Positions 1,698 to 41,820 of a DNA stretch of 64,000 bases are shown here, piece by piece. The stretch's first letter is position 1. Each line of letters opens with the position of its first letter. A program made the translations under genes and the position numbers. Under the pieces are notes generated by a model, which did no database searches, was not told the DNA's origin, and worked only from the letters and a program-made list of their open reading frames with translations. Where the stretch lies: sequence record AP019559. One strand, written 5' to 3'. This stretch comes from Escherichia phage SP15.

Positions 1698-3362
1698 TTA
1701 TGCAAAGAATTTACCGTTCTTAAAGTCGATCAAAGTACGCTGACCGTTTGCATAGGTAATTAAATGCGTTTGTGTCCAGCTTGACGCGCCAACGTTGTAA
1801 CCCATATCCAGACTACCAGCTACGCCAGCGGTATATACCCCGCCGTAAATGCTGGCGGTATGAGTGTGCCCCGTGTTCAGTTTACCCAATTTCTTAAACT
1901 GTTTCGGATTGCCACGGCTGCCGTTTATGCCATTGTGACCGTGTACGCCGCATTCAATGCCTGCAATTTTAAATGATTGGTCAGTCGTTAGGAAAATGGC
2001 GTTAAACTCGCAACCTGCAACCTTACGCAGCGCATAATCTAGCACGTTGAAAGTATCGTCTTTTTCTGCAATAGCTCCATAAATCGCGGCATTAAGGCGG
2101 TGATATAGTTCCGCGTTTGCTGGGTCGTCTTTAATGTTAGCATTACGATCATCAAGCCAACGGGATAACGCCAGATCATGGTTAGATTCAACAATGATTG
2201 TTTGCGAGAAATCGCGCTCCATTGATTCCAGTACGCGCCCCGTATCGATGAGATCATCCAGAACTTTATCACGTCCGGAGGCATACTGTTTTGCTAGGAA
2301 TACACCCGAAGCGCGGTTGTGATGGTTGCGTGATGTAAAGTCGTGAACGTCATGGATAAACTGATATTTTGGTTTAAGAATATCAAGCAAGCTATTTTCG
2401 CCAGCCCATGACGCAGCGGCGCATTCTTCATCTAATTTTTCAGCGTGGATGTCGCCATATTGTAAACCTAAAACGTGCCCCGTTGTTTCATAGCATCCGG
2501 CAGGAGTAGCGCAAACATTCAGATCATAAAACACGCCGCTTTCGTCCATTGTTTCAAGCTGGCGAACAAAAAATTCCCCGTCCTCATCGAACTCAACAAT
2601 CAGCGCACCGAAATTATGCAGCGCCTCGGCCTTTTGTCCTGCTTTCTGCTGAATGTAATTTTTGAGCGTTGCCGTTCCGGTTGAATACATGCGGCGCACA
2701 ATTTCACCTTTTAAAGCTGGCACGCTTTCGGCGGTGATTTTAGCCGCTCCAATTGCCAGACCTTCCAGATTAAGCGCGGTTGCAGTTTCAGCGAATCCAG
2801 AAAGCGGATAATCTGCGGTTGGCAAAACATTAATTTCAGCCATGAAAGCAAAACGGCGGTTATTTAAAAACACGTTTTTATTGCAGATATATTTATCAAA
2901 AGCGGAATCATATTTGATTCCGTCTGCGCCCTCGCCATTTTGAAAACCGTTTTTGTTATAGATATATTTTGAAACGAGCAAATCAGCGCCGATATATTTA
3001 GCAAATTGCTCCAGTGAGGCTAAAAAGTTTTTATGCGGGAAAGTATTATTCTGAATCGATGTAATAATAAAGCGTTTGCCTTGTTTTACTTCCCAGCTTT
3101 CCACCGTGCTAGAAACAATCCCCGCCGCTTCTGGGCGCTCATCGTTTTTAATGGCTTTTGCTACTTTCGCCGCTTTCGGTTTAGCTGGTTTATTTGCTTC
3201 CAACCAGTCGCAGATAGCGGTCGAGTGTTTTGTTGTATCGTAGACCGCTTTTGATATATCGTCGCAGACCTCCAGTTTAGTAGCGCGCAGACGTTTACCA
3301 TAGAAATTAAAGTCAGCGGCCATTTTCAGGATAACGGTTTGTTTTTCTGCGGAAATAATCAT
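1698..3362 (-). CDS. A1: A1-like pre-early protein, calcineurin-type metallophosphoesterase (predicted nuclease)
   Basis: Track ORF extends to 3452; I place the start at the ATG at 3362 (MIISAEK..., GGAG about 10 nt upstream), giving ~554 aa; motifs 'GDIHAEKLD' and 'GHTHTASIYGG' typical of metallophosphoesterases. Confidence 0.7.
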   Translation of the reverse strand: MIISAEKQTVILKMAADFNFYGKRLRATKLEVCDDISKAVYDTTKHSTAICDWLEANKPAKPKAAKVAKAIKNDERPEAAGIVSSTVESWEVKQGKRFIITSIQNNTFPHKNFLASLEQFAKYIGADLLVSKYIYNKNGFQNGEGADGIKYDSAFDKYICNKNVFLNNRRFAFMAEINVLPTADYPLSGFAETATALNLEGLAIGAAKITAESVPALKGEIVRRMYSTGTATLKNYIQQKAGQKAEALHNFGALIVEFDEDGEFFVRQLETMDESGVFYDLNVCATPAGCYETTGHVLGLQYGDIHAEKLDEECAAASWAGENSLLDILKPKYQFIHDVHDFTSRNHHNRASGVFLAKQYASGRDKVLDDLIDTGRVLESMERDFSQTIIVESNHDLALSRWLDDRNANIKDDPANAELYHRLNAAIYGAIAEKDDTFNVLDYALRKVAGCEFNAIFLTTDQSFKIAGIECGVHGHNGINGSRGNPKQFKKLGKLNTGHTHTASIYGGVYTAGVAGSLDMGYNVGASSWTQTHLITYANGQRTLIDFKNGKFFA

Positions 3363-3451
3363 AGTATAAAACTCCATTAAAGGGACTAGGTTAATAACGG
3401 CAATATTGCCAAATATAACGCCGCAAATGAGTGGCGTTATAATTTGCAACA

Positions 3452-3649
3452 TTAATTTAAAGGTATAAGGCTAGAACTAACACCACAAGCAACGGCGGCA
3501 ATAAAACAAATCAGACCTAAACGCTTTGCCAATTTAGACTTACGTTTAAAATAATATGAATCTAAATCATTTTGAAAATAAGCGAATAGTAACGAGGCCG
3601 CCATAATAAATAAGCCTAGAATGAGGGATTCAGTAGGGTAAAAGATCAT
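3452..3649 (-). CDS. small two-helix membrane protein
   Basis: Track ORF 3452..3697 begins at a GTG inside an 18-bp palindrome; ATG at 3649 with GGAG upstream is the more likely start; two hydrophobic helices. Confidence 0.4.
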   Translation of the reverse strand: MIFYPTESLILGLFIMAASLLFAYFQNDLDSYYFKRKSKLAKRLGLICFIAAVACGVSSSLIPLN

Positions 3650-3679
3650 TTTAATAACTCCAGTCAAAGGGAAATTATA

Positions 3680-3697
3680 GTGGGGAATATTCCCCAC
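3680..3697. repeat. perfect 18-bp palindrome GTGGGGAATATTCCCCAC between the A2-like and A1-like genes
   Basis: Read directly; sequence is its own reverse complement. Confidence 0.8.
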
Positions 3698-6053: not shown

Positions 6054-7046
6054 ATGAGGCTATATAAACCAGATAACGCAACCGTCTTAAAAGGTGCGCT
6101 GCGTAACCTGCTGGACGGTAGCAGAACAACCAGCATCAAACATTTTGTTTTCAATATTGAAACTATTCATCAAAACTTTTTTGGTGATTATGATGCTTAT
6201 AATATGGATAGTTTTCTACCGTTATATAAACAAGGGGCAACGCTTGTTTTATATAATCAGGAATCTCACTTGCTTACTAGTCGAGGGCCAGATACTGATT
6301 TTATTTTAGTAAAAGGCAACACAGTAAAAGCCTATGATGCGGGGGCGGGCTTAGAAGTTTTCACAATAGAAAACTATGAGGCTAATGATAATGATCTTTA
6401 TGATGTAGAAAATTTTCTCGATTCATTTTGGCGTTATTTATCAGTTGGATGGAATCGATCAGATTATGACGGGTATCGTTTTGCGGCTGTAATGGCTTTT
6501 GATGATAACGGTAATTTTTTATTACCATCGGAATTATACCCGTATGTGCATAATGAGCTAGTACAAGAAGCGGGTTTTATTTTCTGGAAAGATGAAGATC
6601 AGATTATTGACAGCGTAGAAAACCATGCTGTAAATTCTAACACTCAAAGCGTTAAAACTCAAACTACTGAAAACAAAGGAAAAAACACCATGACCAAGAT
6701 CGCTAATATTGTTGCCGCTAATAAATCCGCTGTTGTAAACGCTGCAAAACTGGAAGCGGGTAAAATTGCACTGACTCAAATTACGAAAGTAGCGGCTAAA
6801 AAAGCACCGTTTATGATTAAAGGTTATATTGATACACCTATCGGTCGAGTAGTGATTGCCAACCTGCTGAGCGTAGCGGTTGACCAGTACGCCCCAAGTA
6901 ACCAAAAGGCGAAAGCGGTGGCAGGTGCAGCTATGGAAGCGGCTATGTTAGAAATGGTGCAAAGTTTTAACATCGCTGAGATGATTGATGAAATGGTAAA
7001 AGGTATTGATATTTCTACTTTTACCACTAGCACCGAAAGCGAGTAA
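6054..7046 (+). CDS. hypothetical protein
   Basis: 330-aa ORF; RBS GAGGGAGG upstream; first gene of the plus-strand cassette. Confidence 0.55.
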   Translation: MRLYKPDNATVLKGALRNLLDGSRTTSIKHFVFNIETIHQNFFGDYDAYNMDSFLPLYKQGATLVLYNQESHLLTSRGPDTDFILVKGNTVKAYDAGAGLEVFTIENYEANDNDLYDVENFLDSFWRYLSVGWNRSDYDGYRFAAVMAFDDNGNFLLPSELYPYVHNELVQEAGFIFWKDEDQIIDSVENHAVNSNTQSVKTQTTENKGKNTMTKIANIVAANKSAVVNAAKLEAGKIALTQITKVAAKKAPFMIKGYIDTPIGRVVIANLLSVAVDQYAPSNQKAKAVAGAAMEAAMLEMVQSFNIAEMIDEMVKGIDISTFTTSTESE

Positions 7047-31046: not shown

Positions 31047-31123
31047 TGGTGCGTGACAAGGGATTCGAACCCTCAAAACCCGACTTCTAAGGACGGTATG
31101 TATGCCAATTCCATCAATCACGC
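31047..31123 (-). tRNA. tRNA with anticodon TAG (Leu by anticodon) but class I architecture
   Basis: Hand fold: loop CTTAGAA, 5-nt variable loop, discriminator A. Confidence 0.55.
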
Positions 31124-33452: not shown

Positions 33453-33554
33453 GCTTGTTTCCTCAGTTATTAATGAAAATGGTATCTGTGGCTGAATTCG
33501 ATGTCAGCAATGATAGCTGGTTGGCTACCGGTTTACTTAACTCTACACAGAATT

Positions 33555-33637
33555 TGGCGGGCCGTGTAGGATTCGAACCTACGTTGTCTTTCGACATGGA
33601 TTAACAGTCCACCGCCAAACCGCTTGGCTAACGACCC
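33555..33637 (-). tRNA. class II (long variable arm) tRNA with anticodon GTT (Asn by anticodon), discriminator G
   Basis: Hand fold is clean: D-stem GCCA/TGGC, anticodon stem GTGGA/TCCAT, loop CTGTTAA, variable hairpin GTC-GAAA-GAC, T-arm GTAGG-TTCGAAT-CCTAC. Confidence 0.6.
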
Positions 33638-33789
33638 TAAATTTATATTGCTGACTAGGATTTTCACCTAGACGGAGTTAGCACCGTAGCGTGTAGCGGC
33701 ATACCTCTCCAAACCGTGCCTCATCTTTCAATTACGGAGACAGTGTTCCTACGCGTGCCTGAATTGATTCAACAATTCTTCCAGCAAAT

Positions 33790-33865
33790 TGGACGACCGC
33801 ATGAGATTTGAACTCACATAAAAAGGATTTGCAATCCTTCGCCTAAGCCCTTCAGCCAACGGTCG
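33790..33865 (-). tRNA. tRNA-Cys (GCA)
   Basis: Hand fold: perfect anticodon stem AAGGA/TCCTT, loop TTGCAAA. Confidence 0.75.
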
Positions 33866-34474: not shown

Positions 34475-34565
34475 TGGTGTTGGATGATGGAGTCGAACCA
34501 CCCGAGACCCTTCCGAGTCGGCAGATTTACAGTCTGCTTCGCTACCTCTACGATACTAATCCAAC
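34475..34565 (-). tRNA. tRNA-Tyr (GTA), class II
   Basis: Hand fold: perfect acceptor GTTGGAT/ATCCAAC, anticodon arm GCAGA-CTGTAAA-TCTGC, long variable arm. Confidence 0.75.
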
Positions 34566-35443: not shown

Positions 35444-35520
35444 TGGTAGGGGTGGTGGGATTCGAACCCACAAAACCTGAATTTTAAGTCCAGTACCTAT
35501 GCCAATTCGATTACACCCCC
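35444..35520 (-). tRNA. tRNA with anticodon TAA (Leu by anticodon) but class I architecture
   Basis: Hand fold: good acceptor and T-stem, loop CTTAAAA, 5-nt variable loop, discriminator A. Confidence 0.55.
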
Positions 35521-35735: not shown

Positions 35736-35813
35736 TGGTGGCTCCCCGAGGATTCGAACCTACGTACCTTCCGGTTATGAGCCGGGTGCTCATACCATAT
35801 GAGCTTGAGAACC
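35736..35813 (-). tRNA. tRNA, anticodon CAT (third copy)
   Basis: Hand fold: perfect D-stem GCTC/GAGC, loop CTCATAA; weak T-stem. Confidence 0.5.
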
Positions 35814-40365: not shown

Positions 40366-40809
40366 TTAATTAAATTCACCAGCAATCTGAGCAGCAGTAC
40401 CACCATCATAACGCCCAGGAAATTCTTCCTTAATCGCTTTCATCAGCATACCTTTTGTAATTCCAGGGTTTAGCTTAACTAATTCTGCAAAGTATTTACG
40501 AATCTCAGTATCAGATAACTGAGGGGGCAGATACTCCTGCAACCACTTATTTAGAATGTACTCATACTGAGCGGACTGCAAGCTATAACTATCAAGATCT
40601 TGACCATGAAGTTTAGCTTTCATCTGGTTAATGCTTTTTAGTTGAGCTTTGAGATAAGACACAAATTGTTCAGAAGTGATGAAATCTTTATTAATACGCT
40701 GAAGATCCCCGATTATGGTCTGATAGCTTTTAGCGACTTCTTTATCAGAACCATTAAACTTAGAATCCTGCAAAGCTCTACGCAAAACATCTAAAATATT
40801 CTCTTCCAT
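40366..40809 (-). CDS. hypothetical protein (possible GatB/YqeY-like domain)
   Basis: 147-aa ORF; weak similarity impression at the C-terminus. Confidence 0.45.
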   Translation of the reverse strand: MEENILDVLRRALQDSKFNGSDKEVAKSYQTIIGDLQRINKDFITSEQFVSYLKAQLKSINQMKAKLHGQDLDSYSLQSAQYEYILNKWLQEYLPPQLSDTEIRKYFAELVKLNPGITKGMLMKAIKEEFPGRYDGGTAAQIAGEFN

Positions 40810-41047: not shown

Positions 41048-41515
41048 TTAAGTTTTAGTGACAACAGGTTTATAAAACGTATGTCCCTTAATCTTAGTTG
41101 TTTTCTTAAACTTCTTTGTCCAGTAAGGTTTATCTTTACCACTATGGAAGTATAGTGCTCCATGTGTAGGATCTTGTGGTAAATCAACGTAGTATATCAC
41201 TCTAGCTAAATTCTTAGCGGTTTGCCAAGCCTCATCAGTTTTATCAACTTTTGGTCTCTTAGATACCCAAGAGAACTGGTTAGACTGATATACTACTTTA
41301 CAGTAGGAATCTGGGAATTTACCGGAGTTTACACGGTTTTTAGTAACGTGTGCAATCGCCGTCATTCCCTTTATGCCCTCACCACGACTTTCGAAATAGA
41401 TATTTTTAGCAATGCAATCTATTTCTTTTGCATCGTGCGATGCCTGACTACTAAAGCTGAAGGTAAGGGCAGCTACTAAAAGCAAAGCTGCCTTCATTCT
41501 TTTTACTCCTGCCAA
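41048..41515 (-). CDS. secreted cell-wall hydrolase, SleB/CwlJ-like
   Basis: Signal peptide; 'FESRGEG...AIAHVTKNRV...VVYQSNQFSW' resembles the cell-wall hydrolase family. Confidence 0.6.
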   Translation of the reverse strand: MAGVKRMKAALLLVAALTFSFSSQASHDAKEIDCIAKNIYFESRGEGIKGMTAIAHVTKNRVNSGKFPDSYCKVVYQSNQFSWVSKRPKVDKTDEAWQTAKNLARVIYYVDLPQDPTHGALYFHSGKDKPYWTKKFKKTTKIKGHTFYKPVVTKT

Positions 41516-41820
41516 TCATATTCAACACGATTGGGGTTTTCTTTGTACCCTAAGTCAAGCAAATCATTACGCATATGTTGCTTAGCTACTGGGTTCGAGG
41601 TTACTAGTACCACTTTCTTTGGTCTCTGCCCAAATTCTAAGAGTAAACGAAGAATTTGATAACCTTCCATACCATCTACAGCCAAGTCATTATCCATATA
41701 AACGAAGTGGCCTGTGGTATCAGTTTTATTCAGAAACTCGACAGCGGCTTCTGGGGTTCGAATGATAATGTCCATTCCGTGAAGATTACGCACATCATCA
41801 ATCAAAATATGAAAAGTCAT
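41503..41820 (-). CDS. hypothetical protein (possible receiver-like fold)
   Basis: 105-aa ORF; assignment weak. Confidence 0.45.
   Translation of the reverse strand: MTFHILIDDVRNLHGMDIIIRTPEAAVEFLNKTDTTGHFVYMDNDLAVDGMEGYQILRLLLEFGQRPKKVVLVTSNPVAKQHMRNDLLDLGYKENPNRVEYDWQE

Follow-up and report, generated by a model that had tools for sequence, protein, structure and literature searches.

The stretch analysed here, called the window below, comprises 64,000 nucleotides (nt) of Escherichia phage SP15 (sequence record AP019559), and our subject is a transfer RNA (tRNA) gene at 33555-33637 on its minus strand, which joins the asparagine anticodon GUU to a long variable arm. The gene very probably specifies a functional phage tRNA that decodes AAC and AAU as asparagine, and it is one of two swapped alleles at its locus and a member of a widespread long-arm family. 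The complete identity set of the bacterial asparaginyl-tRNA synthetase (AsnRS) has been kept, together with an anticodon stem-loop almost identical to that of the host, while the body would have been rebuilt with a short variable-arm hairpin of the tyrosine type. The gene itself is already known and is correctly named tRNA-Asn.

ARAGORN calls tRNA-Asn(gtt) at exactly these coordinates, as one of the 23 minus-strand tRNA genes that it places from 28.5 to 39.5 kb and as the single tRNA-Asn of the window phage. The Rfam model RF00005 is matched over its full length with 59 bits (threshold 29, E = 7.8e-13), a 10-nt insertion being placed in the variable region and the remainder forming a standard cloverleaf. 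The minimum free energy (MFE) fold is the same cloverleaf with a variable-arm hairpin, and all helices are intact. A first-pass annotation, made from the letters of the sequence, had described a long variable arm, a GUU anticodon and G73, and on all three points it agrees with ARAGORN, Rfam and the MFE fold. It had also named two outcomes that would change the picture. The first was a different fold from a covariance model, one giving a canonical isotype, and the Rfam alignment contains none, only the cloverleaf and the variable insertion. The second was a sequencing-level difference restoring GTA. The GTT is no such quirk, as copies at least 99% identical are found in 206 phage records. The RNA reads, from 5' to 3', GGGUCGU-UA-GCCA-AGCGGUU-UGGC-G-GUGGA-CUGUUAA-UCCAU-GUCGAAAGACAAC-GUAGG-UUCGAAU-CCUAC-ACGGCCC-G-CCA, and its parts are the following.

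33555..33637, minus strand: complete tRNA-Asn(GUU) gene with encoded CCA, 83 nt (ARAGORN; Rfam; annotated in AJ604531, KJ190157 and many other records).
33555..33557, minus strand: genomic CCA 3' end (sequence; CCA is encoded by all tRNAs of the cluster).
33558..33558, minus strand: discriminator base G73 (sequence).
33559..33565, minus strand: acceptor 3' strand ACGGCCC, which pairs with GGGUCGU (33631-33637) and gives G1-C72, G2-C71 and G3-C70 (fold).
33583..33595, minus strand: long variable region GUCGAAAGACAAC, with a stem of 3 base pairs (bp), GUC/GAC, a GAAA tetraloop and AAC unpaired at the 3' side (fold; covariation; hairpin excess over shuffles).
33603..33605, minus strand: anticodon GUU, tRNA positions 34-36, within the loop CUGUUAA at 33601-33607 (sequence; ARAGORN puts the anticodon at gene position 33).
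33614..33628, minus strand: D arm GCCA-AGCGGUU-UGGC with a 4-bp stem and a 7-nt loop (sequence; it resembles the class-II D arm of the relative in phage CHI14, GCUGAGCGGUUUAAGC, minus one base).

The variable region of 13 nt compares with 3-7 nt in the phage's other non-Ser/Tyr tRNAs. As a region of at least 10 nt forming a stem-loop, it is of the class-II kind and unlike the 4-5 nt variable loop of class I, which is a descriptive character and no identity element. The acceptor stem and the T stem have their canonical 7 bp and 5 bp. The window phage is T5-like. Over 601 nt around the gene it shows 100% identity with Escherichia phage vB_EcoS_FFH_1 and with AJ604531 ('Bacteriophage 5 tRNA gene region'), and the gene is labelled tRNA-Asn in the annotated GenBank and RefSeq records that were matched. 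The hand-curated record AJ604531 places promoter P14b upstream of tRNA-Cys and a 'tRNA-like RNA3' 2 nt downstream of tRNA-Asn. It also remarks on the tRNA-Asn that 'replacement of the anticodon with CUA sequence converts this tRNA into amber suppressor', from which it follows that the molecule has been worked with experimentally and that its CUA form, at least, is expressed, processed, charged and accepted by the ribosome.

In E. coli, asparagine identity consists of the three anticodon bases and G73, and it can be transplanted into the body of tRNA-Lys (PMC9976931). This AsnRS set of G34, U35, U36 and G73 is complete in the window tRNA. Its anticodon arm, GUGGA-CUGUUAA-UCCAU, is one compensated pair apart from GCGGA-CUGUUAA-UCCGU of E. 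coli, and the arms of the related tRNAs in CHI14, KpV477, nepoznato and PA1C equal the E. coli arm at 17/17 positions. For a comparison at the level of the family, we collected 149 distinct long-arm tRNA-Asn together with 141 class-I tRNA-Asn, 141 tRNA-Ser, 71 tRNA-Tyr and 109 long-arm tRNA-Leu, with the following frequencies at the identity positions.

Long-arm Asn (149): G73 93%, A73 1%, U1-A72 74%, G1-C72 21%, C2-G71 50%, G2-C71 34%.
Class-I Asn (141): G73 99%, U1-A72 73%, G1-C72 21%, C2-G71 52%, G2-C71 36%.
Ser (141): G73 78%, A73 7%, G1-C72 80%, G2-C71 94%.
Tyr (71): A73 97%, U1-A72 3%, G1-C72 82%, C2-G71 14%, G2-C71 77%.
Long-arm Leu (109): A73 98%, G1-C72 38%, C2-G71 70%, G2-C71 15%.

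The identity positions of the long-arm set match those of ordinary tRNA-Asn and differ from those of Ser, Tyr and Leu. Isotype profiles were also applied, restricted to 32 positions left free by the scan pattern, which constrained A31 and U39 together with the anticodon loop and the greater part of the T loop. Among 148 long-arm bodies, the best profile was Asn for 67, Gln for 47, Ser for 6, Tyr for 6 and Leu for 0, where Gln shares U1-A72 and G73 with Asn. The geometry of the arm points the same way with respect to serine. The long-arm tRNA-Asn have a stem of 3-4 bp and about 3 unpaired 3' nt, which is Tyr-like (3 unpaired 3' nt in 50/71 tRNA-Tyr). The Ser arms have a median of 18 nt, stems mostly of 4-7 bp and one unpaired 3' nt in 90/140, and 140/141 of them exceed the 13 nt of the window tRNA, whose arm equals that of the host tRNA-Tyr in length, in its GUC/GAC stem and in its 3-nt tail. 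In addition, G73 is an antideterminant against TyrRS and LeuRS (PMC9976931). Our reading that AAC and AAU are decoded as asparagine rests on these elements taken together: the G34/U35/U36/G73 set, the Asn-type positions across the family, an arm that is Tyr-like and not Ser-like, and the antideterminant G73. Charging would be by AsnRS, given that asparagine identity lies wholly in the anticodon and G73 and is transferable to another body. The 'atypical Asn tRNA' that the first-pass annotation offered as one alternative is the right one.

Several observations weigh against this reading. Class II synthetases such as AsnRS approach the tRNA from the side of the variable arm, and tolerance of the arm by AsnRS is assumed here. 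The window allele carries C11-G24, which is a feature of E. coli tRNA-Ser. Its isotype profile, taken by itself, is ambiguous (Trp 21.3, Asn 19.4, Tyr 13.5). It falls within the 21% minority of the long-arm family with G1-C72, and its G1-C72, G2-C71 and G73 are all conserved features of tRNA-Ser (PMC9976931). Finally, the CUA derivative of the long-arm allele suppresses amber codons and that of the class-I tRNA-Asn of phage T5 does not. Suppression by the CUA form implies that some enzyme charges the long-arm body without the Asn anticodon, and this enzyme could be SerRS, TyrRS or GlnRS. In E. coli, tRNA-Asn(CUA) has no activity as long as the 1-72 pair is strong, and with this pair weakened it inserts Gln (PMC9976931). 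The strong G1-C72 pair of the window allele therefore makes GlnRS the less obvious candidate, and leaves SerRS, or TyrRS in view of the CUA anticodon and the Tyr-like arm.

These points lead to the claim of the first-pass annotation that seryl-tRNA synthetase (SerRS), which does not read the anticodon, might charge the tRNA and miscode Asn codons. In its general form, SerRS or another anticodon-independent enzyme would charge a meaningful fraction of the molecules, so that serine is inserted at Asn codons. Serine identity resides mainly in the variable arm and the tertiary shape; G1-C72 and G2-C71 are conserved, and G73 acts as an in vivo determinant (PMC9976931). The window tRNA has all of these. 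The pattern of amber suppression described above, and a 1-72 pair that argues against GlnRS, also speak for this identity. We nevertheless consider such a dual or shifted identity quite improbable. The length and orientation of a Ser-type arm are lacking: the window arm, with its 13 nt, 3-bp stem and 3 unpaired 3' nt, has the geometry of the host tRNA-Tyr, while nearly all Ser arms are longer, with stems mostly of 4-7 bp. G73 is also a determinant for AsnRS, which would compete at GUU, and the evidence from suppression concerns the CUA form. The acceptor stems of the family are Asn-type, and half of them have C2-G71, an anti-SerRS element (PMC9976931). Furthermore, this is the sole tRNA-Asn of the phage, and one relative looks like a vertically inherited gene beside the housekeeping gene dnaG in a bacterial clade. 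A tRNA-Tyr reportedly needs a lengthened arm in addition to G73 to become a substrate of SerRS.

The other suggestion of the first-pass annotation was a mutated tRNA-Tyr, that is, a tRNA-Tyr in which GTA has changed to GTT. Together with the notion of a decaying pseudogene that merely resembles a tRNA, it has next to no probability in our judgement and is effectively refuted. The arm length, the GUC/GAC stem and the 3-nt tail are those of the host tRNA-Tyr and the anticodon is one base from Tyr, but the GUA and A73 of tRNA-Tyr are replaced by GUU and G73, the anticodon arm is of the E. coli Asn type with a G27-U43 wobble pair in its stem, and GTT is kept in the 206 records mentioned above. The phage also has a separate tRNA-Tyr(GTA) with A73 at 34475-34565, and outside the loops the two genes show no similarity. 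Against a pseudogene stand the intact helices, the functional CUA derivative and identical or near-identical copies in more than 260 records.

Two further comparisons were made. The transamidation route (ND-AspRS, GatCAB) would use U1-A72, in place of which G1-C72 is found in the window tRNA; U1-A72 is present in 74% of the long-arm family, Pseudomonas phage PA1C among them. Enterobacteria possess AsnRS, so this element is irrelevant there. An acceptor/T-stem arrangement of 8/4 or 9/3, which characterizes allo-tRNAs, is not found in the window tRNA.

The variable arm forms a genuine helix. When 12 relatives were aligned, the cloverleaf and a 4-bp arm stem were 97.5% paired, values reached by 0/500 shuffles, and both sides had changed in 3/4 pairs of the arm stem. 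A covariance-model search with the clade model over 98 sources recovered every tRNA and gave a mixed alignment, and the arm was analysed by direct hairpin statistics. Of the variable regions, 138 of them distinct, 82% have a Watson-Crick stem that runs for at least 3 bp without interruption, compared with 42% of shuffles; the mean arm stem is 3.25 bp compared with 2.44 +/- 0.06 in shuffles, with 74 different stem sequences. The loops are mostly GNRA. The presence of the arm goes together with changes in the core. Position 9 shifts from A to G, G9 being found in 40% of long-arm Asn and 7% of class-I Asn, and similarly in 95% of tRNA-Leu with a long arm and 34% with a short arm. Several long-arm members have a GCCGAGYGG...GGC D arm like Ser and Tyr tRNAs, and the relatives in CHI14 and nepoznato have 3-bp D stems and GAGCGG-type loops. 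The window tRNA itself has A9, a 4-bp D stem and a 7-nt loop, where a class-II-type core has a 3-bp D stem, an enlarged loop and G9. The most likely reason for keeping the arm would be that an insertion is tolerated, since asparagine identity bypasses the tRNA body, and that an arm, when present, needs to persist as a stable hairpin within a core of the class-II type. The phage may also benefit if its tRNA looks different to host factors which attack tRNA-Asn.

The locus of the gene exists in two forms in T5-like phages. Its boundaries in the window are as follows.

33790..33865, minus strand: tRNA-Cys, directly upstream in the same transcription unit, and left boundary of the cassette that differs from T5 (ARAGORN; curated annotation; T5 alignment).
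33638..33789, minus strand: spacer of 152 nt between tRNA-Cys and tRNA-Asn, unrelated to its T5 counterpart, which carries ORF T5.069 (alignment; T5 annotation).
33480..33552, minus strand: RNA3, a tRNA-like stable RNA that starts 2 nt past the CCA of tRNA-Asn, and right boundary of the cassette (curated annotation; alignment).

In the same slot, T5 (NC_005859, gene T5t17) has a 78-nt class-I tRNA-Asn with a 5-nt variable loop, the anticodon loop UUGUUAA and an anticodon stem containing a mismatch. The homing-endonuclease-like open reading frame (ORF) T5.069 overlaps it (T5 annotation; Bas31 annotation 'putative homing endonuclease'), and it is the T5 record that states that the CUA form of this tRNA is no amber suppressor. 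When aligned, the window and T5 are identical through tRNA-Cys and unrelated just after it; identity resumes at the final bases of tRNA-Asn (CCGCCAAATTCTG...) and continues through RNA3. Identity on both flanks of an unrelated middle indicates that a cassette has been exchanged between the window-type phages and T5. In T5-like phages, the tRNA-Cys / tRNA-Asn / RNA3 locus therefore has a pair of interchangeable alleles, the long-arm gene and the T5 class-I gene. The long-arm allele is found in about 267 records of the phage collection at 95% identity or higher (the 206 records at 99% or higher are among these), and the T5-type allele in about 134. Both alleles share the slot, the GUU anticodon, G73, G1-C72 and G2-C71. 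They differ in that the T5 allele is of 78 nt and class I, with a 5-nt loop, UUGUUAA, an overlapping ORF and a non-suppressing CUA form, and it is the T5 allele that was used in the PARIS experiments discussed below. The comparison with the T5 annotation that the first-pass annotation had proposed thus holds for the slot and fails for the gene, since T5 has the class-I allele there.

RNA3 is 100% identical in T5 despite the swap of the adjoining tRNA-Asn, and is annotated as a stable tRNA-like RNA. Its fold (-17.9 kcal/mol, z = -3.0) has a 6-bp stem resembling an acceptor, a hairpin that resembles an anticodon arm and has a 6-nt loop, a T-arm-like hairpin and the end ...UACCA; neither ARAGORN nor Rfam calls it. 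Another structural allele swap was seen for tRNA-Leu. The window has tRNA-Leu (UAG, UAA) at 31047-31123 and 35444-35520, both on the minus strand, which are 77 nt each with a 5-nt variable loop and without the long arm usual in bacterial tRNA-Leu, and the corresponding slot in T5 has an 85-nt long-arm tRNA-Leu(UAG). Armless tRNA-Leu make up 86/195 in the sampled loci, with A9 in place of G9 when the arm is absent.

To see how far the long-arm form extends, the IMG/VR database was scanned for the Asn anticodon loop and the T loop separated by a long spacer, and at least 120 loci matched. ARAGORN confirmed a long-arm tRNA(gtt) in nearly all of the matched loci listed, with variable regions of 9-22 nt and very diverse sequences. 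When the spacer was left unconstrained, 11 of the 120 stretches listed (9%) had the long form and 109/120 the class-I spacing, so the long-arm form accounts for about 9% of the sampled viral tRNA-Asn genes. The close relatives, all annotated as tRNA-Asn, are in T4-like phages of Serratia, Klebsiella, Enterobacter and Cronobacter, CHI14 being 88% identical to the window allele; others of these are in the Phapecoctavirus coliphage nepoznato and in phiKZ-like Pseudomonas jumbo phages. The same long-spacer pattern was applied to prokaryotes with one genome per species, the counts being those among the matches listed. Many of the true matches lie in dense tRNA arrays with 10-36 tRNAs per 8 kb and others are lone genes. 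For example, arrays of 18-36 tRNA genes within 8 kb, each with a long-arm tRNA-Asn, were observed in three Verrucosispora / Micromonospora loci and three Planctomycetaceae loci, and the actinomycete arrays have the arm UCAGGYGNAAGCCUGGU in common.

Seven of the lone genes (Solirubrobacterales, Acidimicrobiia and unclassified metagenome-assembled genomes) lie 0.6-0.9 kb from a full-length housekeeping dnaG. The DnaG proteins of these loci are 38-65% identical, and the arm is kept with a compensatory stem change from GUCC/GGAC to GCCC/GGGC, which is the signature of a vertically inherited chromosomal gene. Judged by its sequence context, the dnaG-linked gene looks like a native chromosomal tRNA-Asn of a bacterial clade. 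In total, the long-arm tRNA-Asn occurs in at least four cultured phage groups, in tRNA arrays and as a dnaG-linked chromosomal gene of Solirubrobacterales-type bacteria.

The origin of an arm can be seen in the chromosome of Labilibaculum manganireducens (3113-3692 of locus L151), where five tRNA-Asn genes stand in tandem, three class-I and two long-arm. The two differ from the three solely at the variable loop, AGGGTC being replaced by a hairpin of 14-15 nt (TCCCGACGAGTCGGT). An arm can therefore arise by simple insertion, here as a recent event in a bacterial chromosome. We rejected the idea that long-arm genes generally originate by recent duplication of a class-I Asn gene. Long-arm and class-I tRNA-Asn are present together in 28/154 loci, and the long/short pairs from the same locus have a median similarity of 0.53 compared with 0.50 for random pairs, the Labilibaculum chromosome excepted.

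Long arms are also found on other isotypes. In the viral loci picked for a class-I tRNA-Asn, 23/438 (about 5%) of the other normally short-arm tRNAs have variable regions of at least 9 nt. By isotype these include Met 6/47, Cys 3/18, His 3/15 and Pro 3/30, and many are clear GNRA-capped hairpins. Extra arms may thus be a general feature of viral tRNAs that is not specific to Asn.

The distribution bears on a further reading, in which the tRNA is charged with asparagine as above and the arm has been selected to make it a poor substrate for host nucleases that attack tRNA-Asn, the anticodon loop staying host-like. AriB of the PARIS system cuts the E. coli tRNA-Asn(GUU) between positions 40 and 41, and T5 tRNA-Lys, tRNA-Thr and tRNA-Asn together rescue growth and some phages from PARIS (10.1101/2025.02.04.636281). 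The host tRNA-Asn is thus an AriB target, and the T5 tRNA-Asn is needed in the rescue. The T5 class-I allele departs from the host at positions 39-41 (UAAGU|UGA), and the window allele retains the host site UAAUC|C exactly, its main departure being the arm, which starts 3 nt downstream. A role in counter-defence would also agree with the share of long arms among viral tRNA-Asn and their spread over unrelated phage families, with the loci that hold both types in pairs no more alike than random ones save for one locus, and with the Pfam matches of two neighbouring ORFs (cREC_REC, YqeY-like), which would fit a context of tRNA conflict. On the other side, the published work used the T5 class-I allele and the long-arm copy of Bas34 is probably broken; long arms exist in about 5% of other normally short-arm viral isotypes and in ordinary bacterial chromosomes; and AriB cuts tRNA-Asn weakly in vitro (10.1101/2025.02.04.636281). 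We hold selection of the arm for counter-defence only as a tentative possibility. The wider proposal is rather unlikely: a recurrent class of phage tRNAs in which AsnRS identity and host-like decoding are combined with a class-II body that shields against nucleases or toxins directed at tRNA-Asn, for example AriB-type enzymes cutting the 3' strand of the anticodon stem beside the arm. If it were true, the two alleles of the T5 family would represent two ways of escape, T5 having substitutions in the anticodon stem and the window phage an additional arm, and the same logic might explain why further phage isotypes have long arms and why phage tRNA-Leu has lost its own.

Some candidate lines of evidence were rejected. 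The PARIS/AriB rescue with 'T5 tRNA-Asn' is not direct functional evidence for the window gene, as the T5 allele is a different, class-I tRNA. Bas34 needed the T5 tRNA-Asn in trans despite having a tRNA-Asn gene itself (10.1101/2025.02.04.636281). In Bas34 (SelmaRatti, MZ501103; about 6598-6681 of locus L362), the annotated 77-nt 'tRNA-Asn' is the long-arm allele with its 3' acceptor strand replaced, so that ACCCGCU stands opposite GGGUCGU; it is not among the ARAGORN calls, and downstream of it neither RNA3 nor tRNA-Asp is present. This copy is probably a non-functional pseudogene, which would explain the need for tRNA-Asn in trans, and Bas34 is therefore uninformative as a readout of protection by the long arm under PARIS. 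The OLD tRNase was dropped as a nuclease directed at tRNA-Asn, since it targets Thr, Val and Pro tRNAs instead (preprint).

Two ORFs by the tRNA cluster were observed in this connection. The ORF at 40366-40809 on the minus strand (147 aa) has a YqeY-like, GatB-tail-type domain at 25.4 bits, just below the Pfam cut-off of 27. By position it appears to be T5.081, labelled 'tRNA amidotransferase' in T5, and a putative tRNA-binding role is possible. The ORF at 41503-41820 on the minus strand (105 aa) matches Pfam cREC_REC, 'Cyclic-phosphate processing Receiver domain', with 54.8 bits. The cREC domain is linked to RNA-repair systems, and this ORF, if so linked, would fit a phage region of tRNA conflicts.

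When compared with known tRNAs, the window tRNA shares with the bacterial class-I tRNA-Asn (E. coli asnT/U/V/W) GUU, CUGUUAA, G73, the G27-U43 wobble, the anticodon arm apart from one compensated pair and the expected synthetase. It differs in its structured arm of 13 nt compared with 5 nt, in G1-C72 compared with U1-A72 and in the D arm. With the bacterial class-II tRNA-Tyr it has in common the 13-nt variable region, the 3-bp GUC/GAC stem, 3 unpaired 3' nt, G34, U35, G1-C72 and the D-loop AGCGG, but it has U36 in place of A36, G73 in place of A73 (anti-TyrRS, PMC9976931 Table 3) and another anticodon stem. The likeness to bacterial tRNA-Ser consists of the long arm, G73, G1-C72 and G2-C71; in the window tRNA the arm is much shorter, the number of unpaired bases at the arm base is different, the D arm has a 4-bp stem and a 7-nt loop, and the anticodon is read by another synthetase. 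The allo-tRNAs (Mukai et al. 2017, reviewed in PMC7609411), which come mainly from genome and metagenome mining, likewise combine a long arm with a non-Ser/Leu/Tyr anticodon. Theirs is an 8/4 or 9/3 structure with Ser or Ala identity elements, while the window tRNA has 7/5 and the full Asn set.

In textbooks and reviews, the long-arm (class II) tRNAs named are those for Leu, Ser, bacterial Tyr and Sec only (e.g. PMC7609411). We found no description of the long-arm tRNA-Asn architecture, its breadth or its Asn-type signature in the searchable literature, where the older Russian papers on T5 tRNAs (1980s-2000s) lie outside the search and a prior mention of the cloverleaf is quite possible. The molecule is a natural test of the tolerance of AsnRS for a long arm, and of how Ser, Tyr and Asn identities are separated in one tRNA that bears elements of all three. 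With the host tRNA-Asn a proven target of PARIS and two structural alleles at one locus of the T5 family, it also offers a system for asking whether the shape of the body, beyond the sequence of the anticodon loop, evades tRNA-targeting immunity. If the arm is neutral, the result is still a useful correction to tRNA classification and annotation.

One more tRNA of the cluster was recovered by Rfam and missed by ARAGORN. It lies at 35739-35813 on the minus strand between tRNA-Ser(GCU) and tRNA-Leu(UAA), scores 40.3 bits, and by position corresponds to the curated tRNA-Ile2 (CAU) of AJ604531.

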